Source of the DNA: an uncultured Acidimicrobiia bacterium
GTDB lineage: Bacteria > Actinomycetota > Acidimicrobiia > Acidimicrobiales > AC-14
Direction of reading: 5' to 3'
Assembly (NCBI GenBank): GCA_963825765.1
Contig: CAWGUU010000018.1
Span: 16,401 to 80,400, forward strand
Length of the DNA stretch: 64,000 nucleotides
The notes beneath the pieces are model-generated. The model was not told the origin of the DNA and did not search any database. It saw only the letters and a list, made by a program, of their open reading frames with translations. Positions 1,954 through 64,000 of this stretch are shown one piece after another. A program made the translations under genes and the position numbers. The first letter of the stretch is position 1. The number at the start of each line of letters is the position of its first letter.

Positions 1954-2045
1954 AGCGCCCTTCGCCAACCCGTCGAGCGTGCGAAAGGTCGCCATGGCGA
2001 TCCTTCTTGCACGCTCACGGCTCGGAGCCGCGACTCCATGCCGGC

Positions 2046-2273
2046 TCAGGCTTCGGGTTCGGGTGCCTCTTCTTCTTCCGACTCGATCGCGACCTCGTTG
2101 CCTTCGGGACGGGGGATCAGGGACTTGACCTTGTCCTTGACCGGGGCGACCTTGTCGTGGCCCAGCTTGTCGCCGGCGAAGTCGGCCACCTTGTCGACGA
2201 CGTCGTCGATCTTGTCGGCGTTCCCCGCGACCAGGTCTTTCGCCTTGTCGGCCAAGCCGTTCAGGTCAACCAT
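2046..2273 (-). CDS. small MT0933/Rv0909-like antitoxin-family (CsbD-like) protein
   Basis: 75 aa from ATG preceded by GGAGGAG; DKAKDLVAGNADKIDDVVDKVADFAGDKLGHDKV resembles PF14013-type proteins; lies between nuoD and nuoH on opposite strand. Confidence 0.55.
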   Translation of the reverse strand: MVDLNGLADKAKDLVAGNADKIDDVVDKVADFAGDKLGHDKVAPVKDKVKSLIPRPEGNEVAIESEEEEAPEPEA

Positions 2274-2415
2274 GGGCTCCTCCATCACTCGTCGGACACG
2301 CAACTGCGGATTCAGGTGTAGCTACCCAACGCGGATACCGGCCAAGCCTGGCACGCCTACGTTGCGGCAAGGTTGTCACTGTGTGAAGGCGTTCACTAAT
2401 GTCCGACGCTGAGCG

Positions 2416-3438
2416 ATGCTTGCCCTCGAACTTCCCTACTGGCAACTCACCGTCATCAAGACGGTCGTTGTGCTGTCCATCATTCCGGCGGCCGCGATCA
2501 TCCTCGGCTACGTCTTCCTCCTGAAGATGATGGCCCACATGCAGAGCCGGCTGGGCCCCATGGAGCCGGGCGGCTACCACGGCTGGTTCCAGCTGATCGG
2601 CGACGGCATCAAGTTCATCCAGAAGGAGGACATCATCCCGGACGAGGCCGACCGCCGGGTGTTCGCGGTGGCGCCGGTGGTGGTCCTCGTTTCGACGTTC
2701 CTGCTGTACGTGGTGATCCCAGCCGGGCCCGACCTGGTCGTCGAGAACCTCGACGTCGGCATCTTCTACGCCTTGGCGGTGGGCTCGCTGTCGGTCATCG
2801 GCGTGCTCATGGCCGGGTGGGCATCGGCCAACAAGTTCTCCCTGCTGGGCTCCCTGCGAGCCGCCGGCCAGCTCATCGCCTACGAGCTGCCGCTGGTGCT
2901 GGCGGTCGTCGGCGTGGTCATCCAGGCCGAGACCATGAGCCTGCAAGGCATCGTCCACGCCCAGGCGGACGGCTCGATCTTCGGCATCGGCTGGCTCGGC
3001 AACCCGTTCGTCCTCACCCAGATCGTCGGCTTCGTGATCTTCCTCGCCGCCGCCCAGGCCGAGCTCACCCAGACCCCGTTCGACATGCCGGTGGCCGAGT
3101 CCGAGCTGGTGGCCGGCTACATGACCGAGTACTCCGGCTTCCGGTTCCTGTTCTTCTTCATGGCCGAGTTTGGCACCGCCTTCGCGCTGTCGGCCATCGC
3201 CGCCACCCTCTACCTGGGCGGCTGGTACCAGCCGTTCATCACCGGCGACCTCGCCAACCTGGTCGGACCGCTCGTCCTGTTCGCCAAGGTGATGCTCATC
3301 GCCTTCGTGATCTTCTGGGTGAGGTTCACGTTCCCCCGTTTCCGTGAGGACCAGCTCCAGAGCTTCGCCTGGAAGGTCCTCATCCCGATCTCGCTGGTCA
3401 ACATCCTGGCGACCGGCGTTCTGAAAGTGATTTTCTGA
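2416..3438 (+). CDS. nuoH: NADH-quinone oxidoreductase subunit H (NuoH)
   Basis: 340 aa polytopic membrane protein; classic NuoH N-terminus. Confidence 0.95.
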
Positions 3439-4736: not shown

Positions 4737-6728
4737 ATGCTGGAGAACGCCTGGCTCATCCCGCTGACCATGGCGGTGTCGTTCGTCCTCATCCTGTTCT
4801 TCGGCAAGCGCATGCCGAAGAAGGGGGCCGAGATCGGCATCCTGGCCATCGGCGCCTGCTTCGTGATGTCGGTGATGACCGTCCTGCAGTGGATCGCGCG
4901 GGAGGGCCACCCGCACCGCGAGGCCGTCGAGGCCCACCTGACGTGGTTCAAGTTCGGGAGCGTCGACCTGGGCGCCGGCATCCACGTCGACGGCCTGACG
5001 GTGATGATGCTCTTCGTCGTCACCTTCATCTCGCTGATGGTGCACATCTATTCGACGGGCTACATGCACGGCGACCGGCGGTACACGTACTTCTTCGCCG
5101 CCCTGTCCCTGTTCACCGCGGCCATGCTCCTGCTGGTCGTCGCCGACAACACCCTCCAGATGCTGATCGGGTGGGAGCTCGTCGGCCTCTGCTCGTTCAT
5201 GCTGATCGGCCACTGGTGGGAGGAGACCGACAACTCCAGCGCCGCCATCAAGGCCTTCATCACCACCCGGATCGGCGACGTCGGCCTGCTGCTCGGCATC
5301 ATCACCCTGTTCTTCGCCGCCGGCCAGAACTTCAACATCGAGCACCTGAACCACGAGGCCCTCAGCGGTGGCATCAGCCACACCCTCCTCGTCGTCGGCG
5401 CCAGCCTCCTGTTCCTCGGGGTCATGGGCAAGAGCGCCCAGTTCCCGCTGCACGTGTGGCTCCCCGACGCCATGGCCGGCCCCACGCCGGTGTCGGCCCT
5501 GATCCACGCCGCCACCATGGTCGTCGCCGGCGTGTACCTGGTGGCCCGGCTGTACGGCGTCTTCTGGGAGGGCTTCTCCATCGCCGCCGGGGGCATCAAC
5601 CCGATGGCCCTGATCGGCGCCATCACGGTGATCGCCTGCGCCGCCCTCGCCTTCGTCCAGGACGACGTCAAGAAGGTGCTGGCCTATTCCACGGTAAGCC
5701 AGCTGGGGTACATGGTCATGGCCCTCGGCGTCGGCGCGTGGACAGCCGGGATCTTCCACCTCTTCACCCACGCCGCCTTCAAGGCCCTGCTCTTCCTCGG
5801 GGCGGGTTGCCTCATCCACGCCGTCCACTCCAACAACATGAGCGACATGGGTGGGCTCCGAAAACACATGCCGACCACGTTCGTCACGTTCATCATCGGC
5901 TCCCTGGCCCTGGCCGGGATGTTCCCGCTCGCCGGCTTCTGGTCGAAGGACGAGATCCTCCTCGGCGCCCTGACCGGCCCCCAGGGCAACGGCTACCCGC
6001 TCATGCTGATCGTCGGGATCGTCGGGGCTTTCATGACCGCCGCCTACATGACCCGCACCTGCTACCTCGTCTTCTTCGGCGAGTACCGGGGCCACGGCGA
6101 GCCCCACGAGGCCCCACCGTCGATGCGGTGGCCCCTGGTCGTCCTCGCCGTCCCGGCGGTGCTGTTCGGCCTGCTCAACGCCCCGGGGCTCGAGAAGTTC
6201 AACCACTGGGTCGCCTTCCACGTGCCGGGCGTGGAGGAGATCGTCGAGCACCACGAGTTCAACCCGTCGCTGGCCCTGATCTCGCTGGCGGTCGTCCTGG
6301 CGGGCATCGGCATCACCTGGCGGGCCTACGCGGCCGACGGCTGGCCGAGGGGGCTCATGGCCCGGAGCTCGTTCCTGGCTACCGCCCACCGCATCCTGGT
6401 GAACAAGTACTACCTCGACGCCCTCTTCATCGACGGCATCATCCGCAAGATCCAGTACCCGATCGCCCGGGCCGCGTATTGGTTCAACCAGCACGTGATC
6501 GACGGCGTGGTGAACGGTGTCGGCATCGGTTCGCGGAAGGTTGCCGGGTTCGTCTACGACATCATCGACCAGAAGGGCGTCGACGGGCTCGTCAACGCCG
6601 CCGGTGCCGGTGCCGAGGAGGGCGGCAAGGTCCTGCGAAAGACGCAGACGGGCCGCGTGCAGCAGTACGCCGCCTTCCTGTTCGGGGCCTCCGCGCTGCT
6701 GGCTGTGGGCCTGGTCTTCCTGACGTGA
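4737..6728 (+). CDS. nuoL: NADH-quinone oxidoreductase subunit L (NuoL)
   Basis: ATG at 4737 (MLENAWLIPL...) in frame with ORF 4089..6728; antiporter-like subunit. Confidence 0.9.
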   Translation: MLENAWLIPLTMAVSFVLILFFGKRMPKKGAEIGILAIGACFVMSVMTVLQWIAREGHPHREAVEAHLTWFKFGSVDLGAGIHVDGLTVMMLFVVTFISLMVHIYSTGYMHGDRRYTYFFAALSLFTAAMLLLVVADNTLQMLIGWELVGLCSFMLIGHWWEETDNSSAAIKAFITTRIGDVGLLLGIITLFFAAGQNFNIEHLNHEALSGGISHTLLVVGASLLFLGVMGKSAQFPLHVWLPDAMAGPTPVSALIHAATMVVAGVYLVARLYGVFWEGFSIAAGGINPMALIGAITVIACAALAFVQDDVKKVLAYSTVSQLGYMVMALGVGAWTAGIFHLFTHAAFKALLFLGAGCLIHAVHSNNMSDMGGLRKHMPTTFVTFIIGSLALAGMFPLAGFWSKDEILLGALTGPQGNGYPLMLIVGIVGAFMTAAYMTRTCYLVFFGEYRGHGEPHEAPPSMRWPLVVLAVPAVLFGLLNAPGLEKFNHWVAFHVPGVEEIVEHHEFNPSLALISLAVVLAGIGITWRAYAADGWPRGLMARSSFLATAHRILVNKYYLDALFIDGIIRKIQYPIARAAYWFNQHVIDGVVNGVGIGSRKVAGFVYDIIDQKGVDGLVNAAGAGAEEGGKVLRKTQTGRVQQYAAFLFGASALLAVGLVFLT

Positions 6729-6751
6729 AACCCCCGAGGAGTCTCTGAGCA

Positions 6752-8284
6752 ATGGTCCTGACCGCAGCCATCTTCCTGCCGATCCTCGGCGTGATACTCC
6801 TCGCCGTCATCCCGCGCTCGCAGGAGCAGGTCCTCAAGGCCGTGGCTCTGCTGGTGGCCCTGGGCACGACCGTCGCCGGGGTCGTCATCCTCAGGGGTTT
6901 CGACTACGGCCAGTCCGAGCGACTCCAGTACGAGGTCAACGAGCGCTGGATCGACGTCATCAACAGCCATTTCCACATCGCCGTCGACGGGATCTCGCTC
7001 CCGCTGCTGATCCTGTCGATGGTCATCACCGTCCTGTGCATCGTCTACTCCTGGGACCACTGGCCCGAGCCCCACAACCCGAAGGCGTTCCTGATCCTGA
7101 TGCTCCTCCTGGAGACGGGGATGAACGGCACCTTCGCCGCCCAGGACCTGATCTTGTTCTTCGTGTTCTTCGAGCTGGTGCTCCTGCCGATGTACTTCAT
7201 GATCGGAGTCTGGGGCGGTCCCAACCGGCAGTACGCAGCCATCAAGTTCTTCCTCTTCACCCTGTTCGGGTCGGCCCTGATGATCCTGAGCTTCCTCGCC
7301 CTCTACTTCCTGGGCGGGAACACTTTCGACATCCCGGAGCTCGTCCGCAACGGGTCGTCGATCGCAAGGGACACGCAGATCCTGATCTTCGCCGGCCTCT
7401 TCATGGGTTTCGCCATCAAGGTGCCGATGTTCCCGTTCCACACCTGGCTGCCCGACGCCCACACCGAGGCGCCGACGGTCGGCTCGGTGATCCTTGCCGC
7501 CGTGCTCCTGAAGCTGGGCGTCTACGGCTTCATCCGGGTGGCGCTCCCGATCCTGCCGGAGGCGGCCCGGGCGTGGGCCCCATGGATCGGGTTGCTGGCG
7601 GTCATCGGCATCATCTACGGCGCCCTCGGGTGCCTGGCGCAGAAGGACATGAAGCGCCTCATCGCCTTCTCGTCGGTGGCGCACATGGGGTTCATCATGC
7701 TGGGCGTCGCCACCCTCACCGACTTCGGGATCAACGCCGCGGTCTTCGGGATGGTGGCCCACGGGCTCATCACCGGGATGCTCTTCTTCATCGCCGGGTC
7801 GGTGCAGGAGCGGTTCGGCACCCGTGAGATCTCCCGCCTCGGCGGGCTGCTGACCCAGGCGCCCCACCTCGGCTGGATCCTCGGGTTCTGCGTCTTCGCC
7901 TCGTTGGGCCTGCCCGGCCTGGCCGGGTTCTGGGGCGAGTTCCCCGCCATCCTCGCCGCCTACCAGCCGGCCGAGGGGCTTCCTGTCGGCGTCTTCCGCG
8001 CCTACATGGCGGTCGCCGCCATCGGCACCGTCTTCGCCGCCGGCTACCTGCTCTGGATGCTGCAGCGGGTGGCGTTCGGCACCGCCAAGGCCGAGTTCGA
8101 GGACAGCCACATCCACGACGTCCACGTCTCCGAGTACATCGCCTGGGTGCCGCTGCTGGTCGGCATCCTGGTCCTGGGCATCTTCCCGGGCCTGCTCTTC
8201 GGCGTCACCAACGACGCCGTCGAGGCCGTCGCCCAGACGACCGGCGCGGTCGTGAACCTGGCCACCGGCGTCGGGCACCCATGA
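6752..8284 (+). CDS. nuoM: NADH-quinone oxidoreductase subunit M (NuoM)
   Basis: 510 aa antiporter-like subunit. Confidence 0.95.
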   Translation: MVLTAAIFLPILGVILLAVIPRSQEQVLKAVALLVALGTTVAGVVILRGFDYGQSERLQYEVNERWIDVINSHFHIAVDGISLPLLILSMVITVLCIVYSWDHWPEPHNPKAFLILMLLLETGMNGTFAAQDLILFFVFFELVLLPMYFMIGVWGGPNRQYAAIKFFLFTLFGSALMILSFLALYFLGGNTFDIPELVRNGSSIARDTQILIFAGLFMGFAIKVPMFPFHTWLPDAHTEAPTVGSVILAAVLLKLGVYGFIRVALPILPEAARAWAPWIGLLAVIGIIYGALGCLAQKDMKRLIAFSSVAHMGFIMLGVATLTDFGINAAVFGMVAHGLITGMLFFIAGSVQERFGTREISRLGGLLTQAPHLGWILGFCVFASLGLPGLAGFWGEFPAILAAYQPAEGLPVGVFRAYMAVAAIGTVFAAGYLLWMLQRVAFGTAKAEFEDSHIHDVHVSEYIAWVPLLVGILVLGIFPGLLFGVTNDAVEAVAQTTGAVVNLATGVGHP

Positions 8285-10920: not shown

Positions 10921-12882
10921 ATGGCTGACCCGGCGACCATCGAGGCGTACTACCTCGAGGACCGCACCTTCCCGCCCTCCGAGGAGTTCAAGAAGAACGC
11001 CCTCGTCGTCGACAACTCCATGCACGAGGAGGCCGAGACCGACTTCGAGGGCTTCTGGGCCCGGCAGGCGGCCGAGCTCCTCGACTGGGACTCCGAGTGG
11101 GACACCATCCTGGAGTGGGAGCTGCCGTTCGCCAAATGGTTCGTCGGCGGCACGCTGAACGCCTCGGCCAACTGCGTCGACCGCCACGTGGCCGCCGGCA
11201 AGGGCGACAAGGTCGCCTTCCACTGGGAGGGCGAGCCCGGCGACACCCGCACCATCACCTACGCCGACCTGTGCGAGGAGGTGCAGAAGTTCGCCAACGT
11301 CCTGAAGTCGCTGGGCGTGGCCAAGGGTGACAGGGTCAACGTCTACCTGCCGATGATCCCCGAGCTGCCGGTGGCGATGCTGGCCTGCGCCCGGATCGGG
11401 GCGGCCCACTCCGTGGTCTTCGGCGGGTTCTCGTCCGACGCCTTGCGTGACCGGATCAACGACGCCGAGGCCAAGGTGCTGGTGACCGCCGACGGCGGGT
11501 GGCGGCGGGGCAAGGCGGTACCGCTCAAGGACAACGCCGACGCCGCCGTCGAGGGGACGCCCACCATCGAGCACGTGGTGGTGGTCAAGCGCACCGGGGC
11601 CGACGTGGCGTGGGTCGAGGGCCGAGACCAGTGGTACGCCGACCTCATGGAGGGCGCCTCCGCCGACTGCCCGGCCGAGCCGATGGACTCGGAGCAGCTC
11701 CTGTACCTGCTCTACACGTCAGGCACCACGGCCAAGCCCAAGGGCCTCATGCACACCACCGGCGGGTACCTCACCCAGGTCGCCTTCACCCACAAGTACG
11801 TCTTCGACCACCACCCCGACACCGACGTGTACTGGTGCGCGGCCGACATCGGCTGGGTCACCGGCCACAGCTACATCGTCTACGGCCCGCTGGCCAACGG
11901 GGCCACGTCGATCCTGTACGAGGGCAGCCCCGACTTCCCCGAACGTGACCGGTGGTGGTCGATCGTCGAGCGCTACAAGGCGACGATCCTCTACACCGCC
12001 CCCACCGCCATCCGCACGTTCATGAAGTGGGGCGCGGAGTTCCCGGCGGGGCGCGACCTGTCGTCGCTCCGGGTGCTCGGGTCGGTGGGCGAGCCCATCA
12101 ACCCCGAGGCGTGGATGTGGTACTCGGAGAACATCGGCGGCGGTCGTTGCCCGGTGGTCGACACCTGGTGGCAGACCGAGACGGGCGCCATCCTCATCTC
12201 ACCCCTCCCCGGGGCGACGACCACCAAACCGGGTTCGGCCACGTTTCCGCTCCCGGGGATCGCCGCCGAGGTGGTGGACGAGAAGGGCAACTGCGTGGCA
12301 GAGGGGGGTGGGTACCTCACCCTCACCCGGCCCTGGCCGAGCATGCTCCGGGGCATCTACGGCGACCCCGAGCGCTACCACCGGACGTACTGGTCACGCT
12401 TCGAGGGCCGCTACTTCGCCGGCGACGGGGCCAAGATCGACGCCGACGGCTACCTGTGGCTGCTCGGCCGGGTCGACGACGTGATGAACATCTCCGGACA
12501 CCGGATATCGACCGCGGAGGTGGAGTCGGCGCTGGTCCACCACCCCTCGGTGGCGGAGGCGGCGGTCGTCGGGGCCAAGGACGCCACCACCGGCCAGGCC
12601 ATCATCGCCTTCGTCACGCTGAAGGGCGACGTGGAGGCCGACGCCGAGCACGGCGAGGCCCTCCGGCAGCACGTGGCCCAGAAGATCGGCCACATCGCCC
12701 GGCCCAAGACGGTGATCTTCACCGACGACCTGCCCAAGACCCGCAGCGGCAAGATCATGCGCCGGCTTCTCCAGGACGTGGCCGAGGGCCGAGATCTGGG
12801 CGACACGACCACCCTTGCCGACGCCGGCGTGGTGGAGGAGATCAAGAAGCGGGCCAACGCCGGCGCGGGCGATCAGGATTAA
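10921..12882 (+). CDS. acs: acetyl-coenzyme A synthetase
   Basis: 653 aa; [14 protein letters not shown]-binding motif; strong family resemblance. Confidence 0.95.
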
Positions 12883-41807: not shown

Positions 41808-42595
41808 CTGCCCGGGGGCAGCCCGCCCGGCGGCCGGTGGGGGGCGGGTGGTAACGCCCGACGATGGCGCGCACGGTCACAGTCGGGCAGGCCTTCTGCG
41901 CCGCCACCCGCTGCTATCCGCTCTCCTCGCGCTGACCCTGGGACTGGTCGGCATCTGGGGCGTCCGGCTCTGGCATCTCCAGCAAGAGGTCGATCGCTAC
42001 CGCCGCTACTGGTCGCGGGCCAGGGGCGAGCCCGGTGGGATCCTCTACGTGCGCCCTCGGGGATTCGACCGCTCAGGGGATCGGTGCCAGTGGACCGGAC
42101 AAGGGCTACGTCGGGTTGATCGCAGACCGACTCCGGGCGGCGAAGGGCCGCCCGGTGCAGGTCATCAACCTCAGCCGCACGGGGGCACGTGTCGACGACG
42201 TCGTCGCAGACCAGCTGCCGAAGCTGGCCGGGCTGACCCCCGACGTCGTCACCGTCGCGGTTGGCGGCAACGACATCCGGCACTACGACGCCGTCCGCTT
42301 CCGCTCCGACGTCGATGCGTTGATCGCAGGGTTGCCGGCCGGCGCCGTGGTGGGCGACGTCCCGTGGTTCATGCACGGGGGCACGGGGCGAGACTCCGCC
42401 GAGGCCGCCGCATATGTGACCCAGGTCGCCGAATCCCGAGGGCTGCCGGTCGCAGGGCTCCACGAAGCGATGCAGCGGAGGGGTTGGGCGAGCATGCTCA
42501 CCGACTTCTCCGCGGACTGGTTCCATCCGAGCAACCGGGGCTATCGGATCTGGGCTGACGCATTCTGGGAGGCGGTGAACAAGCCCCGGCGCTGA
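41791..42595 (+). CDS. SGNH/GDSL hydrolase with N-terminal TM, single-nt indel near 42050
   Basis: ALGDSTAQG (block I), VGGNDI (block III), DWFHPS (block V); N-terminal TM segment in adjacent frame. Confidence 0.6.
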
Positions 42596-42932
42596 CGGCG
42601 CTGAGACTCCCGCCGTCGCAGTTTCCGTGGCGGGCCTCAAGACATCCTGATCCGGGCGACCCAACTGCCTGGTCGGCGCGGTCCGAGGCCCAGGAGCGCG
42701 CCTCGAGGAGCCGGTACTGAGGGGTGGGCCGCCGACTGCCGCGTGGGAACCCGGCGCTTAACCCGTGGGGACGGTGACCAATGCATCGGGAAAGTCCGGG
42801 TCAACCCGTACATGTGAACCGCCCACGCACGCGCACTGCGTCCCGCTGCGGCCCGTAGGGGCGACGGCGGATCTGGCGGAGTGAGATATTCGAGGAAGGA
42901 GCTATTCGCGTCGGGAGCGTCGCCTGGGTGCT

Positions 42933-43433
42933 GTGACACCCGCCGGTTCCTGCTTGGACGAGCCCCTGCTGGCGAGGCTGGGTCTTCGAGCCGGGGAGGT
43001 CGCTGCCCTCGAGCTGGGTGACGTCGACTGGCGGGCCGGGGAGATCCTGGTGCGGGGCAAGGCACGACGCCAGGACCACCTCCCGCTTCCCGTCGAGGTG
43101 GGCGAGGCGCTGGTGGCCTACCTGCGCGACGGTCGTCCGTGCTGCCAGTGGCGGCAGCTGATCGTCACCCTCTACGCGCCCTTCCGGCCGATCCATCCCA
43201 GTTCCATCACCAACGTCGTCTATCGCGCCTGCCGGCGAGCCGGAATTGCCCGGGTTGGCGGTCACCGTCTGCGCCATGCCCTGGCCACCGAGATGCTGCG
43301 CCAGGGCGGGGACCTGATCGAGATCGCCCAGGTGCTGCGTCATTCCGACCTGGGGACCACCTCCGGCTACGCCAAAGTCGACCGGGTCGCGCTGCTCATA
43401 GTGGCCCAGCCCTGGCCGGGGACGGAGCGATGA
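42933..43433 (+). pseudogene. tyrosine recombinase fragment (catalytic C-terminal domain only; RitA-like, 5'-truncated)
   Basis: [44 protein letters not shown] (R..HxxR..Y); stops in all frames upstream. Confidence 0.6.
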
Positions 43434-44359
43434 GCAGCTTCGCCGACCACGCCCAGGACTACCTGCGACTCCGACGGGCCCTGGGCCACGAACTGGCTGA
43501 GGCCACCCGGCTGCTCCCCCGCTTCGTGGCCCACCTGGACTCGGTCGGGGCCACGACCATCACCGTCGAGATCGCCCTGGCCTGGGTGCGGCGTCCCGAC
43601 GCGGACCCGACGAGCTCCGTGTGGTTCCGGCGCATGACCGTGGTCCGGGGCTTCGCCCGCCACATGTCGGGCATCGACGCCGCCACCGAGGTCCCGCCGC
43701 TCGGGTTGGTGAGCTTCCGGCGGCACTGGCGGCCGCCGTTCATCTACTCCCGCGACGACGTCGTGGCGTTGATGGCCGAGGTCCCCCGGCACACCCCCTC
43801 ACCCCTGCGGGCGGCGACCTTCCAGACCATGATCGGACTGTTGGCGGCCACCGGCATGCGGGTGGGCGAGGCCATCGGCCTGGCCCGTCGCGACGTGGAC
43901 GCGGTCGGGGGAGTGATCACCGTCAGGGCCTCCAAGTTCAACAAGTCCCGGGAGCTGCCACTGGAGCCGACCACGGTGCACGCGCTCGGGGCCTATGCCG
44001 AGGTCCGAGACCGGTTCGTGTCGGCGCCCACCAGCCCCACTTTCTTCCTCTCCCGGGCCGGGACCCCGGTGATCTACACCGACTTCGGAACCAAGTCCCG
44101 CATCCTGGTCGATGCCGCCGGGGTGGGGGCCGACTCGCCGGTGCGGCCCCGTGTCCATGACCTGCGCCATTCGTTCGCGGTCGCCACCCTGGTGCGCTGG
44201 TATCGGGCGGGCGAAGACGTGGGCGCCCTGCTGCCGAGGCTGTCGACCTACTTGGGCCACCTGTCGCCCGGCTACACGTACTGGTATCTGTCGGCTGCCC
44301 CCGAGCTGCTGGCCCTGGCCGCCGGCCGCGTGGAGGCGGCGGAGGCGTCCCGACCGTGA
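43430..44359 (+). CDS. tyrosine recombinase (RitB-like), 309 aa
   Basis: MRVGEAIGLARRDVD, HDLRHSFAVA, LGHLSPGYTYWYL. Confidence 0.75.
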   Translation: MSSFADHAQDYLRLRRALGHELAEATRLLPRFVAHLDSVGATTITVEIALAWVRRPDADPTSSVWFRRMTVVRGFARHMSGIDAATEVPPLGLVSFRRHWRPPFIYSRDDVVALMAEVPRHTPSPLRAATFQTMIGLLAATGMRVGEAIGLARRDVDAVGGVITVRASKFNKSRELPLEPTTVHALGAYAEVRDRFVSAPTSPTFFLSRAGTPVIYTDFGTKSRILVDAAGVGADSPVRPRVHDLRHSFAVATLVRWYRAGEDVGALLPRLSTYLGHLSPGYTYWYLSAAPELLALAAGRVEAAEASRP

Positions 44360-45344
44360 GCCTGCTCGCTCCCACCCTGCAGCTGTTCTTCACCGAGCGG
44401 CTGGCCAAGCAGCGCCAGGCCAGCCCGGCCACGGTGACCTCCTATCGCAACACCTTCCGGCTCCTGCTGCGCTTCGTGCAGGAGACCACCGGCAAGGCCC
44501 CCTCCACCCTGGATTGGGCCGACCTGGACGTCGAGGTGATCTCGGCCTTCCTGGACCACCTCGAGACCGACCGCCACAACAGCGCCCGCAGCCGCAACAC
44601 CCGCCTGGCCGCGCTTCGTTCGCTGTTCCGCTACGCCGCCCTCCGCCACCCAGAGCACGCCCAGCTCATCGCCCAGGTGCTGGCCATCCCCCAGAGCGCT
44701 ACGACAAGACCATCGTGGCGTTCCTCGAGCCCGAGGAGGTCGACGCCCTCTTGGCCGCTCCCGACCTGAGTTGGTGGGAGGGACGGCGCGACCGGGCGCT
44801 GATGGCCCTGGCCGTGCAGACCGGCCTGCGCCTCTCCGAGCTGACGGGGATCCGCTGCGGTGACATCGAGCTCGGCAACGGCGCCCACCTGCGCTGCACC
44901 GGCAAGGGTCGCAAGCAGCGCTGCGTCCCGCTGACGGCCTCGACCGTCGCCGTTCTCCGGGTTTGGCGTCGGGAGCGGGGTGGCCTGCGTGATGATCCGC
45001 TGTTCCCCACAAGAACCGGGCGGCGCCTCAGCGACGATGCCGTCGAGGCCAGGGTCGCGACCCACAAGGCGACGGCCACCACCCGCTGTCCGTCCTTGGC
45101 CACCAAGCGCCTGACGCCCCACGTCCTGCGCCACACCTGCGCCATGGTCCTGCTGCGAGCCGGGGTCGACGTCGCCGTCATCGCCCTCTGGCTCGGGCAC
45201 GCCGACATCCGCTCGACGCAGATCTACCTCCACGCCGACCTGAGCATCAAGGAACGAGCGCTCGCCCGCACCACGCCTGCGACCTCCAAGCCAGGGCGCT
45301 ACCGACCTCCCGACAGCTTGCTGGCGTTCCTCGAGAACCTGTGA
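44356..45344 (+). CDS. tyrosine recombinase (RitC-like), frameshifted in C5 run 44688..44692
   Basis: N-terminal SAM-like domain in one frame, then ...RYDKTIVAFLEPEEVDALL...LRLSELTGIRCGDIEL...HVLRHTCAM...IYLHAD in next frame. Confidence 0.7.
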
Positions 45345-45475
45345 TTATCCCGACCTCGGGGGGCATGCCCGCTCACCAGCGGGGCCCCCCGCCGACTGGG
45401 CCGACGCGGCGCGGGCCCGAGCCACGTCGGGATAATCGCGAGGTCGGGATAAGTCCAGTTACTCCGAAATCGGGG

Positions 45476-45772
45476 TTACTGGACGACTTCGCCCTCCAGC
45501 CGATGGACGGCCTCGACACCTCCGACGTCTACGACCTCATCGTGGAACGGCACCGGGTGGCCTCCACCGTGGTCACCTCCAACCGGGAGCCGATCGAGTG
45601 ACTGGGCCAGATGGCCGACGCCCTGCTGGCCCAGTCGGCCATCGACCGGCTGCAGTCGGCGGCCTACGAGCTGGTGCTCGACGGCGAGTCATACCGCCGC
45701 CGCCAGAAGCCGGGCCTCGACGTCGGCTCGACCACGCCCCGCCCCCGCCGACGCCGGCGGCCGACGGCATGA
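45476..45772 (+). pseudogene. istB: IS21-family helper ATPase IstB, 3' fragment with in-frame TGA
   Basis: LLDDFALQPMDGLDTSDVYDLIVERHRVASTVVTSNREPIE*LGQMADALLAQSAIDRLQSAAYELVLDGESYR matches IstB C-terminus. Confidence 0.7.
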
Positions 45773-46276
45773 CCACGACGTTCCGGACGCAGGTGCTCTA
45801 CCTCCCGCCGACGCCGCTCGGCCTGCTCCCCGGGCGATGGGCGGTCGAGCACCACTGCTCCCTCTGCCGGAGCAGGGTCGCTCCCGACGACCTCATCCGG
45901 CACGCACAGGATCACTCGGCCATGACCACCCAGGACGCAGGGCGCGACCGGGTTCCTTGACCACAGCGACGGCATCGTCCATCATCGCCAAGTCGGTGCT
46001 GGTGACCCCGGAAGTGGTCCCATGCCACTGGCGAAACGATGGTCCCATCGGGCTGGCGGGCGACATCACGGCGTCGAGCCCCCTCGTACAGGCGGTCACC
46101 CGGTCGTGTCCTCGACGCCGCCCGGACGGGGTTGGCCCGGACGAGGGGAAGACGTCGACGACATCCGCCGGGAGGTCGCCCTTCGTGAACGTGGGACAGG
46201 TCGGCCACCGGACGGCGCGCTCGCCGGCAGCTACAAGATGCCGACGGCTCGCTGCCGGTGGCGACTGGCCCGTTGC

Positions 46277-46513
46277 TCAGGCGACCCGGCGAGACGGCGT
46301 ATGGCCGCCACCGAGTTGGCGGGAGATCGACCTCTGCTGCTCCAGAGCGTGGTCGGACGTTCCTTTGGAGCGGTTCGGGTTCGGCATCACGTCGACGATG
46401 TCATCGCGAAGCCGACCTCCGGGATCAGGGTTGATACCCCCAGTATAAGAGCCTCCAACCTGCATGTGATGGGGACTCTGAGGGTCCTTCCGCGTTGCAT
46501 TTACCAGTGCCAT
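46277..46513 (-). CDS. hypothetical small protein in lower-GC region
   Basis: GGAGGTGA RBS 5 nt before ATG (MALVNATRKDP...); atypical codon usage; otherwise unsupported. Confidence 0.25.
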   Translation of the reverse strand: MALVNATRKDPQSPHHMQVGGSYTGGINPDPGGRLRDDIVDVMPNPNRSKGTSDHALEQQRSISRQLGGGHTPSRRVA

Positions 46514-47477
46514 GTGGATCACCTCCACTGTTCAACGAGGTTTCAAGGCACCGCTTACATTGTACTCCTCGGGGTGCAGTTTTCAACGAAAGATTCTTTT
46601 TTCGGCCTCGGCGATGGCACGCATCGAATTGCCAGTCCACTCCGCCCCCAGCATCCTCAGCCGGCGCCAAGGGGGTGAGTGTTCACGTACTATCGGAGAT
46701 GGGTTCTCCGCACAATCTGACTCTAGACATGGGACCTCTAGACATGGGACGAGGCCAATTGTTGTGCCGCCGATCCGAATATCTGCAGCACATACGACGT
46801 TCTCCTCCGGCGTCAGCAGCCGCTTGCGCCGCGCCGGCCCCTAACCCTCGGCCATGTGGAGCCTCCCTCTCGTCGGGCTCGGGCACCGTAGAAGATGCGG
46901 AGTGTTCAACCGCGGCTGCGAACACTGAGTCAAACGCAAACCACATCCGCGCGTTCGCTGACTTCAATCGGTGCGTCCCCTTTTCGGGTGGTGGACTGGT
47001 TCGCCCCCGCCACCGTCATCCGCCAGAGGGCGCAGGTGATGGATCAGGTCATCGAGGGGGGGACTTTGGTTGGCCACGGGTGGGGACGTTCGCATGGCCA
47101 CGGACAGGCGTCGCCCCTTCGGACGAGAGCCAGGGTCGGGCCCCGCTCAGTATTGAGCGATCGCCTGAATCAGGCCTGTATCTCTACCCTCCTCGACCGG
47201 GGGTCCCCTCGCCCCGAGAACTGCGGGACGGTGAGCGAGTCCAGGTCGCCCGAGCCAGTGACATAGGCGCGTCCGCCGCGGCTGACGACGGGCAGATCGA
47301 GGTGGCTGAAGCCGGCACCCGAGGGAGGATGGCAGTCCGAGTCCACGGCGGGCGGCCGTGGCCGGGTCGTGAGGCAGGTGGTGGTTCGGCCGACCGAGCG
47401 CGCCTCCCCGGCAAGGCGAGAACCGCGTGCCGCGCCGTCCGCCCACAAGAGTCGCTGACCGTGCCCCGGACATGACG

Positions 47478-48068
47478 TTAGGACCCGAGCGCGAGCTCGG
47501 CCTTGCTGAGCTGCTGGGCAGCCTCGGCCAGCACGTGACCGAGGAGCTCGGTGATGATCAGTACCATCCCGTGCCGGACGCTCGCGGGAAGCCAGTCGTC
47601 AACCGCGCGACCCTCCGCCACCCGGGCCAGGCGCTCGGACTCCGCCGCGAGCACGGAGATCATCTCGTCGGGATCCCAGCGGTGGTAGCCGGCGATCGGC
47701 TCGCTCAGATGGCAGCGCGTCTCGACGGGACGAACATCGCGGGACAGGCGCTCCAAGTGGTCGGCCGTTGCGTGGACGAGATCCCGGACGCATATGAGGC
47801 GTTCGATGGCGGTCGGGGACCCCGGGGCGTGCCGTCGGCAGCTTCGTTCCCTTCTGGTCCCGTCGATGAGCCGCTCGCCCAGCAGGTCCCGGAAGTCTTC
47901 GGGCAAGGAGCGGACGAGCTCGACGACGTTGCTCATGGCGACTCGGTCCGCCTCGAACGCGACCGAACCCTTCTCGCCCGCCGAGGGCGGCCAGAGGTTT
48001 TGACCGACCCACCAGCGCGGCGATCCAGCCGAAGCACCAGCCGTCCCCGGGGAGTGCTCGACGGTCAT
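47478..48068 (-). CDS. hypothetical protein, possibly DinB/MDMPI-like
   Basis: more protein-like than the fully overlapping plus-strand ORF; weak family resemblance only. Confidence 0.3.
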   Translation of the reverse strand: MTVEHSPGTAGASAGSPRWWVGQNLWPPSAGEKGSVAFEADRVAMSNVVELVRSLPEDFRDLLGERLIDGTRRERSCRRHAPGSPTAIERLICVRDLVHATADHLERLSRDVRPVETRCHLSEPIAGYHRWDPDEMISVLAAESERLARVAEGRAVDDWLPASVRHGMVLIITELLGHVLAEAAQQLSKAELALGS

Positions 48069-59099: not shown

Positions 59100-59833
59100 C
59101 GCACACCAAGAAGGACTCCAAGAAGTACCAGGACGCCGTCCGCCGGTTCGACGAGCAGCTCCTGCACAACCCGGGTGAGGCCGTCGACCTGGTGAAGAGC
59201 CTGGCCTTCGCCAAGTTCGACGAGACCGTCGAGCTGGCGGTGCGCCTGGGCGTCGACCCCCGCAAGGCCGACCAGATCGTGCGAGGCACCGTCGGTCTGC
59301 CGGCAGGTACGGGCAAGATGGTCCGGGTCGTGGTATTCGCCGCCGGCGAGGCCGCCAATGACGCCCGGGAGGCGGGTGCCGACGTCGTGGGCGCCGACGA
59401 CCTGGTCGCTCGGGTGCAGGGCGGGTTCCTCGACTTCGACGTTGCCATCGCCACGCCTGACCTCATGGGACAGGTCGGCAAGCTGGGCCGGGTCCTCGGC
59501 CCCCGGGGCCTCATGCCGAACCCCAAGACCGGCACCGTCACCATGGAAGTCGGCCGGGCGGTCAAGGAGTTCAAGGGCGGTCGGGTGGAGTACCGCACCG
59601 ACCGCTACGGAAACATCCACGTCCCCATCGGCAAGGTGAGCTTCGACCGCCGTGCCCTGCTGGAGAACCTGCGGGCCGTCATCGACGAGCTCAACCGGGC
59701 CAAGCCGGCTTCCTCCAAGGGCAGGTACATGCGCGGGGTCACCATCTCGTCCACCATGGGTCCGGGCGTGAAGATGGACCCCAGCGCGGCGCGTGCGCTC
59801 GAGGACGACCTGGCTGCGGCTGGCCCGTCGTAG
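59096..59833 (+). CDS. rplA: 50S ribosomal protein L1
   Basis: ATGA overlap with rplK; ...[24 protein letters not shown]...[19 protein letters not shown]. Confidence 0.95.
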
Positions 59834-60027
59834 CCGCGTAGCGTTCCAACACCTGGCTGTTGGAGCCCCGAATCGCCTCCAACACCCCCGGGAATCCGGC
59901 GGAAAGCTTCCTGTCAGCCTCCTCCCCGAAGTAGTCTGCCGCCGCGAGCTGGGCGTTCCGCGTGGCGTGGCGGTGTGCTCCCGGTTGAGCGGTCGAAGTG
60001 CACAGCGCCAACGAAGCGAGGCTGACG

Positions 60028-63000
60028 ATGCGGGCGTCAAGGGCTGGATTCACGACGGCGGCCACGGGGAGCAGGGGCAGGGGCAAGGGGACGCCGGCGC
60101 TGGTAGGCGCGATGCTGGCATCGCTCCTTGTGTTCCTGGGCGCGGCTGCGGGCCCGGCGACGGCACAGACCGAAACGCCGACCACGGAGCCGCAGGCCTC
60201 CGAGGCGCCGGCCACCACCGACACCGCCGCGGCCTTGGGCGGCGAGACGCCCGCCGACGCAGGCCCCGCGTCCGGGGATGCGGGGTCATCCGGCGAGAGC
60301 GCCGACACGGGCAAGGCGACCAGCTCGGCGAACTCGGGAGCCAGCTCGAACGCAACCGGCCGACCGGGCCCGAGCGGTGACGCCCGGAACCTGACCAACG
60401 CCGTCGCCGCCGGGGGCGAGGGGGGCGAGGGCGGTATCGCCGGGTCGCTCTCCGTCGGAGCCGACGGCGTTGTCGCGTCCGTAGGTACCAGCGGCTCGAG
60501 TGGCGCCCTCAGCGGAGTCGTCGCCTCGATCGCCGATGCGTCCGGCGGGGCCGGCGGGTCGGCGCTGGTGGCGCTCTCACCGGTGGCCCTTTCCGGCGAT
60601 ACCGGTTCGGCCACCGCCCAGTCCTCTGCCACCAACACGGGTGCCACCGGTGACGCCAGCTCGACGGCCGTCGCCAACCCGACCTCGACCTCAGGTTCAA
60701 CCGGGAACAGCAGCGGCACGGGCGGCTCGGCCACGCCCAACCCCTTCGCCCTCAACACGGGCATCCTGAGCATCACGCCGGTGACTCGAGAGGGCGGCGT
60801 CGGGAGCACCACCCAGACCTCCGGCGGGAACCCCCTCGGCGGCATCGGCGTCGCCTCCGGCTCCTCGCCGAACGAGTCCGCCGATTCAGGTTCAACCGGT
60901 AACTCCGGAGCGGTGTCCTCGATCGGCCTGGCCAGCAGCTCGGCGAACTCCGGCGCGTCAAGTACGTCCACGAGCGTCTCCGGTGACACCGGTGACGCGG
61001 TCAACGACATCGACGTCCTCGCCCTCGGCGGCGAAGGCGGCGACGGCGGCTTCGCCCTCCCGATCGCCCTCGGTGGCAGTGCCGCCAATGTGATCGTCGG
61101 CACGCCCGGCGCGGCCGGTGGGGCCGGCGGGGCCGACGTCGGCGCGGCCGGCGGCGCGGGCGCGGCCGGTGCCGATGATGTCGGCGGCGCTGGTGGTGCA
61201 GGTGGCGCGGGTGGAGCAGGTGGAGCCGGTGGCGTGGGTGTCCCGCCTGCGGCCGGTGGAGCAGGCGGCACGGGTGGAGCCGGCGGCGCGGGCGGTGGCG
61301 GCGCGCCCGGTACCGGCGGCGCAGGCGGTGCGGGCACAACCGGTGGAGCGGCGGCCGGTGGCGCCGGCGTCGCGGGCGGCACGGGTGGGGGAGCGTCCGG
61401 GAGCCCCACGGCGGTCGGAGGCAGCGCCATCGCTGTCGGCACCGCCGACGGTGGCGCGGGTGGCGATGCCACGGTCACGTTCGGCAGTCCGACTGCAGTG
61501 TCCGGGAGCTCGGGCGCCTCGGTGGCCCAGAGCAGCAGCACGAACAGCGGCGACACCGGCGACGCGGAGTCCGAGGCGGAATCCAGCCCGACCGCGGTGT
61601 CCGGCGACACGGGTGACTCCGGCGACACGGGTGACGTGGCGTCCAGCCCGACGGCCGCCAACTCGGCGATCCTCGGCGCGGCCATCGTGATCGACGGCGA
61701 CGTCGAGTCCGGCGACTCCGGTGACACCGGCACCACCGGCGACGCCGCCGCGGTCGGCGCGGCCACCAGCTTCGCCAACAGCGGGGCCAACAGCGACGTC
61801 GTGTCCACGTCCGGCGACACCGGCTCGGCGGAGAACGACGTGGAGGCCCTGGTCGTGGCCGGCGAGGGTGGCGACGGCGGCATCGTCGTTCCCATCGCCG
61901 TGGGCGGCGACGCCCTCAACGTCCTGGCCGGCGCGGCCGGTGGCACCGGCGGTACGGGTGGCGCCGCCACCGGCGGGGCCGGCGGCGCGGGTGGCGCAGG
62001 AGGCGCCGGAACGGGCGGGGCCGGTGGGGCGGGTGGCGGCGGCGGGGCCGGCGGGGCGGGCGGGGACTCAGCGGCGGTCACCGTCGTGGTCGGCGACCCC
62101 GCTCCGGTGATCGCACCCATCGTCACCGGCGGGCAGGGCGGTGCGGGCGGCGCCGGTGGGGCGGGCGGCACGGGCGGCATCGGCACGGGCGGTGCGGGCG
62201 GCACGGGTGGGGCGGGCGGCGCCGCGGCCGGCGGCGGGGGCGGCGCGGGAGGCGCTGGAGGCGCGGCCACAGGAAGTCCCACCGCCATCGGCGGCGCGGC
62301 GATCGCGGTCGGCTCCGCCGACGGGGGTGCCGGAGGATCGGCCACGTTCTCGGCCAGCCCCGAAGCCCGGTCCGGAGCCTCGGGCGCCACGAGCGCCAAG
62401 ACGTCGGCCACCAACACCGGCGACACCGGCGACGCCGACTCGAGCGCGGAGTCGAGCCCGTCGGCCGTCTCCGGCGACTCCGGCGACTCCGGTGACACTG
62501 GCGACGCCACATCCAGCCCGTCGGCCACCAACACAGGCCTTTTGGGCGCGGCAGTTGCCATCGGTGGCGACGTCGAGTCCGGCGACTCCGGCGCCTCGGG
62601 TGCCACCGGCAACGCCGCAGCAGTTGGCGCGGCGTCGAGCTTCGCCAACTCCGGCGCCAACGCCGACGGCGTCTCGGTCTCGGGTGACACGGGCGCGGCC
62701 GCCAACGACCTCGACGTGCTCGTCCTGGCCGGTGAGGGTGGCGACGGCGGCGTGGCCATCCCCGTGGCCCTCGGCGGCGATGCCACCAACGTGATGCTCG
62801 GTGGCGCCGGCGGTGGCGGCGGCACGGGCGGCGCGGCCACAGGCGGTGCCGGAGGCCTGGCCGGCGCCGGTGGCGCAGGGCTCGGCGGCGCCGGCGGTGG
62901 CGGTGGCACAGGCGGTGGCGGCGGGGCCGGCGGGTCGGCCACCGAGGTCTCCACCGTCGTCAACACCATCAACGTGGCCGGCGGAGACGCCGCCGTCGCG

Positions 63001-64000
63001 GTCACGATCGTCCCGATCGTCAGCGGCGGCGCCGGCGGCGCGGGCGCGCTCGGCGGCGCTGGCGGTGCCGGCGGCGGGGGCCTCGGCGGCGCAGGTGGCA
63101 CCGGCGGCACCGGCGGTACGGCAACCGGGGGTGCCGGCGGCGCCGGCGGTGCCGGTGGGACCGTGTCGGGCAGCCCGACGGCGGTCACCGGGCCCACCGT
63201 GGCCACAGCTTCGGCCGGCGGCGGCGCAGGTGGGGCGGCGAGCCTCATCACCAACAGCCCCATCGCGACCTCGGGCGCCTCGGGCTCTTCCAGCACCCAG
63301 GTTTCGGCCACCAATACGGGCGACACCGGCGACGCGTCGTCCAGCGCCGAGGCCAGCCCCGTCGCCGTGTCCGGCGACTCGGGCGACTCGGGCGACTCGG
63401 GCAGTGCCACCTCCACCCCCACGGCCGCCAACGGCTCGATCCTCGGGATCGCCCTTGCGGTCGGCGGAGACGCCGAGACCGGCGACACGGGTGTCACCGG
63501 CGACACAGGCGCATCGGTCGGCGTGGGTACCGCGTCCAGCACCGCCATCTCCGGGGCCAGTGCCTCCGGCGTGTCCTTCTCGGGCGAGACCGGCTCGGCT
63601 GCGAACGAACTCGACCTTGTCGTCGTCGGCGGCGAGGGTGGCGACGCCGGCCTCGCTCTGGCCGCGTCGGCCGGCGGCAACGCCACCAACGTCATGGTCG
63701 GCGGAGCCGCGGGCGTCGGCGGGGTCGGTGGCGCGGCCACGGGTGGAGCCGGAGGCGCAGGCGGGAGCGGCGGAGCGGGCTTCGGCGGCTTCGGCGGCGC
63801 GGCCGGCGGCGGTGGCGCGGGCGGTGGCGGCGGCGCGGCAGTCGCGAACGACGCCGTCGTCACCACGATCACCACGGCCAACGGCGACGCCACCGTCACC
63901 ACCCTCGACGCCCCCATCGTCAGCGGTGGAGCGGGAGGTGCGGGCGCCGGTGGTGGCGCGGGCGGTGCCGGCGGGCCCGGCACCGGCGGCACAGGTGGTA
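60028..64000 (+). CDS. giant secreted Gly/Ala/Ser/Thr/Asp-rich repeat protein (PGRS-like beta-roll/beta-helix-type), 3'-partial (>1320 aa)
   Basis: GCGAGG RBS + ATG 60028; signal peptide MRASRAGFTTAATGSRGRGKGTPALVGAMLASLLVFLGAAAGPATA/Q; manual translation open to window end; about 830-900-bp imperfect repeats each containing SSPTAVSGDTGDSGDTGD...GDVESGDSG...NDxDxLxxxGEGGDGG...GGDAxNV plus GGAGGxGG tracts. Confidence 0.6.
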   Translation, partial: MRASRAGFTTAATGSRGRGKGTPALVGAMLASLLVFLGAAAGPATAQTETPTTEPQASEAPATTDTAAALGGETPADAGPASGDAGSSGESADTGKATSSANSGASSNATGRPGPSGDARNLTNAVAAGGEGGEGGIAGSLSVGADGVVASVGTSGSSGALSGVVASIADASGGAGGSALVALSPVALSGDTGSATAQSSATNTGATGDASSTAVANPTSTSGSTGNSSGTGGSATPNPFALNTGILSITPVTREGGVGSTTQTSGGNPLGGIGVASGSSPNESADSGSTGNSGAVSSIGLASSSANSGASSTSTSVSGDTGDAVNDIDVLALGGEGGDGGFALPIALGGSAANVIVGTPGAAGGAGGADVGAAGGAGAAGADDVGGAGGAGGAGGAGGAGGVGVPPAAGGAGGTGGAGGAGGGGAPGTGGAGGAGTTGGAAAGGAGVAGGTGGGASGSPTAVGGSAIAVGTADGGAGGDATVTFGSPTAVSGSSGASVAQSSSTNSGDTGDAESEAESSPTAVSGDTGDSGDTGDVASSPTAANSAILGAAIVIDGDVESGDSGDTGTTGDAAAVGAATSFANSGANSDVVSTSGDTGSAENDVEALVVAGEGGDGGIVVPIAVGGDALNVLAGAAGGTGGTGGAATGGAGGAGGAGGAGTGGAGGAGGGGGAGGAGGDSAAVTVVVGDPAPVIAPIVTGGQGGAGGAGGAGGTGGIGTGGAGGTGGAGGAAAGGGGGAGGAGGAATGSPTAIGGAAIAVGSADGGAGGSATFSASPEARSGASGATSAKTSATNTGDTGDADSSAESSPSAVSGDSGDSGDTGDATSSPSATNTGLLGAAVAIGGDVESGDSGASGATGNAAAVGAASSFANSGANADGVSVSGDTGAAANDLDVLVLAGEGGDGGVAIPVALGGDATNVMLGGAGGGGGTGGAATGGAGGLAGAGGAGLGGAGGGGGTGGGGGAGGSATEVSTVVNTINVAGGDAAVAVTIVPIVSGGAGGAGALGGAGGAGGGGLGGAGGTGGTGGTATGGAGGAGGAGGTVSGSPTAVTGPTVATASAGGGAGGAASLITNSPIATSGASGSSSTQVSATNTGDTGDASSSAEASPVAVSGDSGDSGDSGSATSTPTAANGSILGIALAVGGDAETGDTGVTGDTGASVGVGTASSTAISGASASGVSFSGETGSAANELDLVVVGGEGGDAGLALAASAGGNATNVMVGGAAGVGGVGGAATGGAGGAGGSGGAGFGGFGGAAGGGGAGGGGGAAVANDAVVTTITTANGDATVTTLDAPIVSGGAGGAGAGGGAGGAGGPGTGGTGG

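Follow-up and report, generated by a model that had tools for sequence, protein, structure and literature searches.

How does a row of three tyrosine recombinase genes come to abut the C-terminal third of an istB gene? This question is raised by positions 42596-45772 of a 64,000-nucleotide stretch of DNA from an uncultured Acidimicrobiia bacterium (GenBank assembly GCA_963825765.1, contig CAWGUU010000018.1; 'the window' denotes this whole stretch), where an earlier, sequence-only reading had seen a 5'-truncated element similar to the recombinase-in-trio (RIT) elements next to a remnant of an IS21 element, and had attributed the arrangement to nested insertion and decay. The name RIT dates from 2009, and such elements occur widely in different phyla. 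Our answer is that window 42964-45484 is, by homology, the right-hand ~2.5 kb of a RIT that would measure ~3.4 kb when complete. The decay is real, involving a truncation, a frameshift and a nonsense codon, but the istB fragment is not an independently decayed neighbor: it is the specific insertion site of the RIT. We place considerable confidence in this reading as a whole, that is, a RIT relic in the window, targeting of istB and a circular mechanism of movement that we infer.

The three genes follow one another on the + strand (window 42933-45344); each matches PF00589 (E 2e-22, 1e-18 and 4e-35, from the first to the third), and consecutive genes overlap by 4 bp, at ATGA 43430-43433 and GTGA 44356-44359, as the sequence-only reading had described. 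Judging from the translations, the catalytic R...HxxR...Y residues are kept in all three (GLRAGE, HRLRH and SGY in what is left of RitA; GMRVGE, HDLRH and YTYWY in RitB; GLRLSE, HVLRH and QIYLH in RitC). The reference trio was RitA, RitB and RitC of Cupriavidus necator pHG1, which is rich in RITs (Van Houdt et al., PMC3414803). In BLASTP comparisons, which are not a full phylogeny, the window proteins match it position by position: 46% identity for the A fragment (E 7e-37), 39% for B (E 2e-60) and 48% for C with the frame repaired (E 2e-87), with 36% over 400 residues (E 4e-67) for the full-length RitA of the closest relative, locus L004, whereas all cross-pairs yield E 1e-5 to 1e-14 or weaker. 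RitA-like genes, at 97-98% query coverage, are found on an A. aromaticum EbN1 plasmid and in seven places on pHG1. A RitA with two core-binding domains and a RitC with an extra C-terminal helix have been described for RITs (PMC8138268). That the trio consists instead of chromosomal Xer-type or prophage integrases, as the best NCBIfam names (XerC, XerD and XerA) and the source annotation 'integrase/recombinase XerD' might suggest, can be practically dismissed, given that the Xer models score 44-130 bits, far under the curated cut-offs of 220-335 (~330 for XerC/XerD; the best score is 130 against 335), that each protein prefers its own counterpart in a bona fide RIT trio, and that organization, overlaps and terminal repeats are all RIT-like. 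A grouping with XerC/D, which would have refuted the sequence-only reading, was accordingly not observed.

What an undamaged element looks like can be seen in L004, a locus on a metagenome contig that is 93.8% identical to the window over window positions 42964-46065. Its RIT spans 3.4 kb, encodes a full RitA of 403 residues and is bounded by left and right terminal inverted repeats (IRL and IRR) of 33 nt that are 97% complementary; here, the left end that the window lacks is preserved and repeats the window's right end in inverted form over 33 nt. The element lies inside the Walker-B segment of istB, with the left flank ...KLLRVDLLILD (...RKLLRVDLLILD) and the right flank DDFALQPMDG.... A sister copy in the same assembly, L003, is 99.8-100% identical apart from a 951-bp internal deletion in ritA, and sits at the same position of a different istB, in the opposite orientation relative to L004. 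Elsewhere (1-3141, 5676-7910 and 12634-12760), the L004 contig carries CBASS-like genes (SAVED, SMODS and E2/ThiF), as well as a large serine recombinase between istA and istB and a 14-bp tandem repeat right after the IS21 end.

So is the Walker-B position a peculiarity of this pair, or a property of the element? We fetched 80 loci from species-representative genomes with RitB alone as the query, searched these loci with RitA, RitB, RitC, IstA and IstB proteins, and then extracted the element ends. The nearest relatives come from bins of Acidimicrobiales and other Actinomycetota. IstB fragments abut the trio in 27 loci (the window included), and all are broken at one position, which corresponds to residues ~163-176 of one reference IstB and to residue 195 of another. 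The 13 empty sites that could be reconstructed share one codon-by-codon alignment, hhhh(V/I/L)D(E/D)xG(Y), and in two reconstructions removal of the RIT yields an uninterrupted match to PF01695 (E 7e-42 and 3e-51). A real empty site is available as well: the intact IS21 of L085 (R. opacus PD630) reads CTGCTGGTC GTCGAT GAACTGGGC, and the filled site in an 87% identical IS21, L001 on pROB02, reads ...ATA ATTGAT, then the RIT, AGCGAT, CTATGTGAACATCGGTATAG and finally GTCGAT GAACTGGGC. The trio faces either way relative to istB, in a ratio of 12:12. Near-identical RITs occupy different sites in four pairs of loci (L003/L004, L016/L017, L032/L033 and L043/L044), identical RITs are found in different IstB subfamilies within one genome in three (L006/L007, L016/L017 and L043/L044), and the identity between IstB flanks and query proteins varies from ~30% to ~90%. 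The diversity of the flanks, combined with the presence of near-identical RITs in different IstB subfamilies, argues for independent insertions as opposed to one spreading composite. Thus, the comparison shows many independent events in which this RIT lineage landed on one and the same h-D codon pair of istB, in either orientation. Each such insertion is expected to inactivate the IS21 because IstB is needed for IS21 transposition.

Two alternatives bear on this conclusion. The RIT and the IS21 fragment might be chance neighbors, unrelated elements that decayed in a junk region, as mobile elements often cluster and the window copy alone shows a single junction; however, a codon-exact junction shared by 27 loci that were not selected for IstB, whichever way the trio faces and even where the istB genes have diverged, and the restoration of a continuous IstB domain upon removal of the element render this explanation extremely improbable. 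Only slightly better placed is the spread of one ancestral RIT-in-IS21 composite as a unit, through IS21 transposition in trans or through horizontal transfer. The window and L004 show similar degrees of identity for the RIT and for the istB flank (~94-95%), so this particular pair travelled together; yet the oppositely oriented L003 and L004 combine all but identical RITs with istB flanks that are only 84% identical, identical RITs occur in distinct IstB subfamilies within single genomes, and flank identities vary widely across loci, so that we consider a single composite very unlikely.

Two further observations concern individual relatives. The 230-residue 'ATP-binding protein' of pROB02 (L001 6326-7018, WP_012687131.1) is a chimera: IstB supplies residues 1-195, and the last ~35 are encoded by the right end of the RIT. 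In L006 and L007 (OZ244929.1), RitB is ~75% identical to that of the window, and both lie on a 7.4-Mb chromosome labelled Spirochaetia; since all other close relatives belong to Actinomycetota, this points to either horizontal transfer or a taxonomic mislabel.

The ends of the elements follow a common plan. Every resolved copy has the same layout, namely, the N-side of the target, a hexamer (O), the left repeat, the trio, the right repeat in mirror image, a second hexamer (O'), a palindrome, O once more, and the C-side of the target. The left repeat consists of two direct 10-bp motifs that are 7 bp apart and a third, inverted copy ~56-99 bp further in; examples of O are CTGGAC and ATCGAC, and O' is roughly its reverse complement. 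The 20-bp palindrome is found on exactly one side in 21 of the 24 loci with both ends anchored; in one of the three exceptions, L036, it is present with a 7-nt spacer. Among the IstB-type insertions, it lies on the IstB C-terminal side in all resolvable cases (22/22). It is absent from the empty istB site of L085, and its halves resemble the element's own end motif (mean identity 8.4/10, versus 3.6 for random motifs) and follow the lineage-specific variants of that motif. In four pairs of oppositely oriented copies (L003/4, L016/17, L032/33 and L043/44), the orientation of the palindrome relative to the element is constant. Two loci, L022 and L053, have the palindrome at both ends and two others, L052 and L023, have N-type flanks at both ends; both arrangements resemble what reciprocal recombination between inverted copies would produce. 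Mismatched flanks (L017 compared with L016, L052, L053 and L022) join N- and C-parts of different IstB subfamilies, two N-parts or two palindromes, as expected if chromosomes were rearranged by recombination between inverted RIT copies.

The plan extends beyond Actinomycetota. A scan for the motif, which resolved ends where a generic inverted-repeat search on proteobacterial RITs gave nothing useful, found RITs of alpha- and gamma-proteobacteria to be laid out in the same way. L071 (4639-4712 and 8923-8996), L078 (893-993) and L082 (4626-4725) each show the palindrome, the 6-bp spacer and two direct plus one inverted motif; in L071, ~1 kb separates ritC from the right end, suggestive of passenger DNA. 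RITs have been described as possessing an inverted repeat with an overlapping palindrome, the repeats being hard to interpret (PMC3414803), and the proteobacterial layout agrees with this description as well as with the 47- and 51-bp palindromic ends reported later (PMC5737581).

The right end of the window copy can be read against this plan. The sequence-only reading had pointed to a 14-bp inverted repeat after the third gene, and its arms indeed lie at 45345-45358 and 45439-45452. The 64-kb window contains exactly three copies of the 10-bp end motif, TTATCCCGAC, all at the right end of the RIT. The inner copy (45345-45354, + strand) follows the ritC stop TGA (45342-45344) directly and belongs to one arm of the 14-bp repeat; in the relatives, too, an inward-facing copy overlaps or adjoins the ritC stop, ~56-99 bp from the inner terminal copy. 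The other two copies (45426-45435 and 45443-45452), 7 bp apart, make up the IRR (45426-45452, - strand), which matches the left end of L004 (8621-8662) in inverted form at 93%; the right terminal repeat is thus present in the window and the left one is deleted. Next come the inner hexamer O', GTCCAG (45453-45458), the reverse complement of the outer hexamer and the putative crossover spacer of core site 1, which has a counterpart at this position in 21 of the 24 fully anchored relatives, and the 20-bp imperfect palindrome (45459-45478), whose halves TTACTCCGAA and ATCGGGGTTA are two inverted, diverged copies of the end motif. Compared with the L004 palindrome, it shows 1/20 mismatches as the reverse complement and 6/20 when read directly. 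The outer hexamer O, CTGGAC (45479-45484, + strand), provides the Leu-Asp codons of the IstB Walker-B segment and would be the point of crossover with the target.

From the outer hexamer onward, the DNA belongs to IS21. The istB remnant (45479-45772, + strand; LDDFALQPMDG...) covers the C-terminal third of IstB and carries the in-frame stop that had been noted earlier, TGA at 45599-45601, where L004 has TGG. Profile hidden Markov models of IstB match this short fragment weakly (E 4e-4 to 7e-3; 16-20 bits against cut-offs of 24 for PF01695 and 200 for NF038214), tblastn aligns it to residues 163-247 of a Rhodococcus IstB at E 9e-9, and its identity is further supported by L004, where the N-terminal part of IstB is contiguous on the other side of the RIT and the flank is ~95% identical to that of the window at the nucleotide level. 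The right end of IS21 (45773-46065, + strand) contains TGGTCCCAT as direct repeats and ends in ...CA at 46065, the very position at which the similarity between the window and L004 ends, in ...GCGACA; window 46014-46059 matches, in inverted form, the other IS21 end of L004 (3558-3601). On the strength of these alignments, 45479-46065 represents the right-hand ~590 bp of an element of the IS21 family.

Is the window copy still functional? The ritA remnant (42964-43433, + strand) retains residues 249-403 of a 403-residue RitA, so that the lack of the N-terminal half noted earlier is borne out: the first open reading frame (ORF) does comprise 166 codons, from a GTG at 42933 to 43433, but homology to intact RitA starts only at 42964, and the nucleotide alignment with L004 breaks at ~42958-42964. 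The remnant is 96% identical to residues 249-403 of the L004 RitA and retains the bulk of the catalytic domain (positions 31-169 of the 172 in the PF00589 profile), whereas residues 1-248, with both N-terminal DNA-binding domains, are gone. By contrast, ritB (43430-44359, + strand) is an intact ORF of 309 residues with a PF00589 match and 93% amino acid identity to the L004 RitB. The third gene, ritC (44356-45344, + strand; PF02899 and PF00589 matches), is not the open 329-residue frame that the sequence-only reading had assumed next to its correctly sized neighbors: it comprises 989 nt and, in the alignment to L004, lacks 1 nt at ~44693 in a run of five cytosines (CCCCC-AGAG versus CCCCCAAAAG). 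The ORF list accordingly has 44356-44769 in one frame and the rest, up to 45344, in another, which places the N-terminal SAM-like domain and the catalytic domain in separate frames. The ratios of nonsynonymous to synonymous substitution rates relative to L004 are 0.11-0.27 across the RIT genes (0.27 for ritB, 0.15 and 0.22 for the two halves of ritC), which implies that the genes were functional and under selection during most of their divergence.

These low ratios in both halves of ritC, and the location of the gap in a CCCCC(A) homopolymer, also lend some weight to the alternative that the frameshift is an assembly error and ritC is in truth intact; the adjacent istB remnant and ritA, however, are clearly damaged, indicating that decay is under way, and we regard an assembly artifact as a realistic but minority prospect. 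The window RIT copy is an immobile fossil that has no function for the host. Its history could be reconstructed as follows: a RIT would have entered, site-specifically, the istB gene of an IS21-family element between the Walker-B codons ...LLI-LD and DF..., a later deletion would have taken the left part of IS21 together with the RIT's left inverted repeat and ritA codons 1-248, and the frameshift in ritC and the nonsense codon in istB would have followed.

To the left, the truncated element is separated from the GDSL-lipase gene, whose stop is at 42595, by junction DNA that is not part of the RIT (42596-42963). As had been noted, it has stops upstream of the first gene, in all six frames over 42596-42930; it shows no similarity to L004 or any other fetched locus and no match to an Rfam family, and its longest ORF has no Pfam match. 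A motif at ~42786, tcgggaaagtccggg, which the sequence-only reading had put forward as a possible left-end repeat, turned out to be unrelated to the end motif of the element, and the motif has no copy within 42500-43000. The genes on this side encode a P-type ATPase, a cupredoxin-like protein and the GDSL lipase; exact-protein look-ups with RitB and the GDSL gene for the pre-insertion locus found nothing, and 12 metagenome loci with GDSL orthologues showed no downstream synteny with the window, so that neither the deletion nor the original IS21 target was reconstructed from them. The sequence at the ritA truncation is TTGGACGAG (L-D-E codons). Truncation by another RIT or by IS21 was considered and rejected, as no palindrome or motif adjoins the break and other truncated copies break elsewhere; the break is taken to be an ordinary deletion, with the CCTGCT(T)GG microhomology as its possible site. 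Just left of the break, at 42950-42963, TTGGACGAGCCC (Leu-Asp-Glu codons) resembles a RIT target hexamer followed by GAG, probably by chance, there being no palindrome or end motif nearby. Among relics in general, ritA is the gene that is most often truncated or internally deleted (L003, L031, L054, L059, L079, L084 and the window), at variable break points; in L079, an IS21 end abuts residue ~240 of RitA. Beyond the IS21 end, window 46066-47500 is lower in G+C (63% in 46001-47000) and contains long ORFs that have no Pfam match, and a 1417-residue ORF in a stretch of 73-79% G+C occupies the right edge of the window (59739-63992, - strand).

Where do RITs insert when they do not enter istB? In L010, the target is an ISL3 transposase, in the region of the first Asp, and PF01610 begins at the junction; in L013, L019, L024 and L035, it is an IS630-like transposase, recognized by a weak match to Pfam DDE_3 in L035 and from the flanking peptides in the others. 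Two of the four copies in one bin, L045 and L046, interrupt an IS1380-like transposase (LGTFLRAFTF-GH-IRQLD; partial PF13701 match, below the cut-off) and have a different hexamer, CGGCCA. FtsK/SpoIIIE-like genes are hit in L020 and, with a weaker match, L038; istA, as read from the sequence, in L002, at GDEAQVDYG; and ritB of another RIT in L049, between SKFN and KSRE. The nesting of one RIT inside the ritB of another (L049, 6480-6560 and 9760-9900) recurs in L014, and the inner RIT of L049 comes with a hexamer (TTGTTG/CAACAA) and a palindrome of its own. On pHG1, too, truncated and nested RITs have been described (PMC3414803). A theme that recurs among these targets is a short conserved codon block in a gene of a mobile element. 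It is an even bet, in our estimation, that RITs are site-specific parasites of mobile elements, with each lineage homing to one conserved codon block via a circle with twin palindromic cores; under this hypothesis, the blocks would be the Walker B of istB for the window lineage, the catalytic-Asp regions of ISL3- and IS630-like transposases, and sites in IS1380-like, istA, FtsK-like and ritB genes for others.

How could one element produce both orientations and still keep its palindrome on one side of the target? Movement might proceed through a circular form with the junction IRR-O'-[h1 h2]-O-IRL. Such a junction would comprise two back-to-back core sites, each consisting of two inverted 10-bp arms and a 6-bp crossover spacer, with both cores arranged as one large palindrome. 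Crossover of the target hexamer with the O core would yield one orientation and crossover with the O' core the other, and whichever core is used, the target would have the palindrome on one constant side. The constant orientation of the palindrome in the four opposite-orientation pairs is what integration through alternative cores predicts. The hexamers, similar but unequal, suggest that the spacers may not have to match perfectly and that some are carried over from earlier sites.

Several facts weigh against the reading that we favor. Many of the loci are metagenome bins in which repeats can be mis-assembled, as exemplified by L019 and L023 with their identical inverted flanks. Roughly one-third of the resolved insertions are not in istB, so the specificity is not absolute, and the enrichment for istB could in part reflect survival, insertions into essential ATPase genes being lost. 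The hexamers are unequal in many copies (CTGGAC, CTCGAC and ATCGAC in L004), and therefore the data do not fix where, inside or next to the hexamer, the crossover takes place. No circular junction was seen in any of the sequences, the circle being deduced from sequence comparison alone. Finally, two comparisons, L006 with L007 and the window with L004, reveal a palindrome that has been turned over with respect to the element, which calls for an additional in situ inversion or for excision and re-integration.

This last observation is central to the most serious competitor of the circle, under which the same element attacks the same target by a different mechanism, either inversion in place or a linear, hairpin-ended molecule. 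The palindrome in these two pairs behaves as in situ inversion predicts, being fixed relative to the target or flipped relative to the element. A hairpin-ended RIT molecule has been suggested from the palindromic ends (Nielsen et al. 2017, PMC5737581), and the same study detected exonuclease-protected RIT DNA but no circular junction reads. Simple in situ inversion, however, does not produce the constant orientation of the palindrome in four opposite-orientation pairs, whereas integration of a circle does. We therefore see a different mechanism as possible but clearly the less probable option, and it may well be that circle integration and in situ inversion both operate.

Taken by itself, the window copy is an ordinary, decayed member of the known RIT class; it matters as an entry point, because the comparative pattern makes the movement of RITs directly testable. 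The mechanism of RITs has been described as still to be deduced (PMC5737581), and their target specificity and movement are listed as not tested (PMC10214605). Literature searches that paired RIT with istB, IS21 or target site returned nothing relevant, and the istB target rule and the circle model appear to be undescribed in the literature searched; Ricker et al. 2013, which lies outside that search, may describe some of this. The predictions are a codon-exact target in istB, insertion in both orientations, a one-sided palindrome borne by the element and hexamers in triplicate, and the pattern allows one to predict attachment sites, the sequence of the circular junction and culturable strains with apparently active copies. 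Isolates whose copies seem to be intact are Kibdelosporangium philippinense ATCC 49844 (L043, L044 and L053), Rhodococcus opacus B4 with pROB02 (L001), Antrihabitans stalactiti YC2-7 (L028) and Mycolicibacterium austroafricanum DSM 44191 (L052). If the reading is true, RITs inactivate IS21 and other insertion sequences and so add a layer of parasitism on transposons, they would also give rise to mis-annotated chimeric 'ATP-binding protein' ORFs such as that of pROB02, and the twin-core circle would explain both orientations and the one-sided palindrome.

How, then, does the window element compare with known systems? Like the RITs of C. metallidurans CH34 and C. necator pHG1, it has the order ritA-ritB-ritC with 4-bp overlaps, and its intact relative, at ~3.4 kb, has terminal inverted repeats and a palindrome at one end. 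Unlike them, it resides in an actinobacterial (Acidimicrobiales-like) host, lacks its left end and is inactivated, and the present comparison adds a defined target, the Walker-B codons of istB, and a rule for the side on which the palindrome lies. The flank is IS21-like in that the C-terminal third of IstB is followed by an IS21 end with repeated motifs resembling IstA-binding sites and a terminal CA; here IS21 is the victim rather than the actor, split at its Walker-B codons by the RIT, with the left two-thirds lost. Elements of the Tn916 and CTnDOT type use coupling sequences, 6-bp crossover regions that need not match between element and target, and such behavior would explain the similar but unequal hexamers of RITs; these elements differ in having a single integrase with an excisionase, no terminal inverted repeats and large cargo. 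The Tn554 family, the SEs (strand-biased circularizing integrative elements) and the GInts resemble RITs as site-specific elements with several tyrosine recombinases, and the circular intermediate of SEs takes along 6 bp of flank (PMC10214605), a carry-over that the variable RIT hexamers recall. They differ, however, in encoding two recombinases or recombinase-like proteins plus accessory proteins, in carrying cargo, in being devoid of the terminal inverted repeats and palindrome of RITs, and in inserting into host sites in one orientation. The assignment of the window trio to RIT, as opposed to the Tn554, SE and GInt families, is supported by this comparison.

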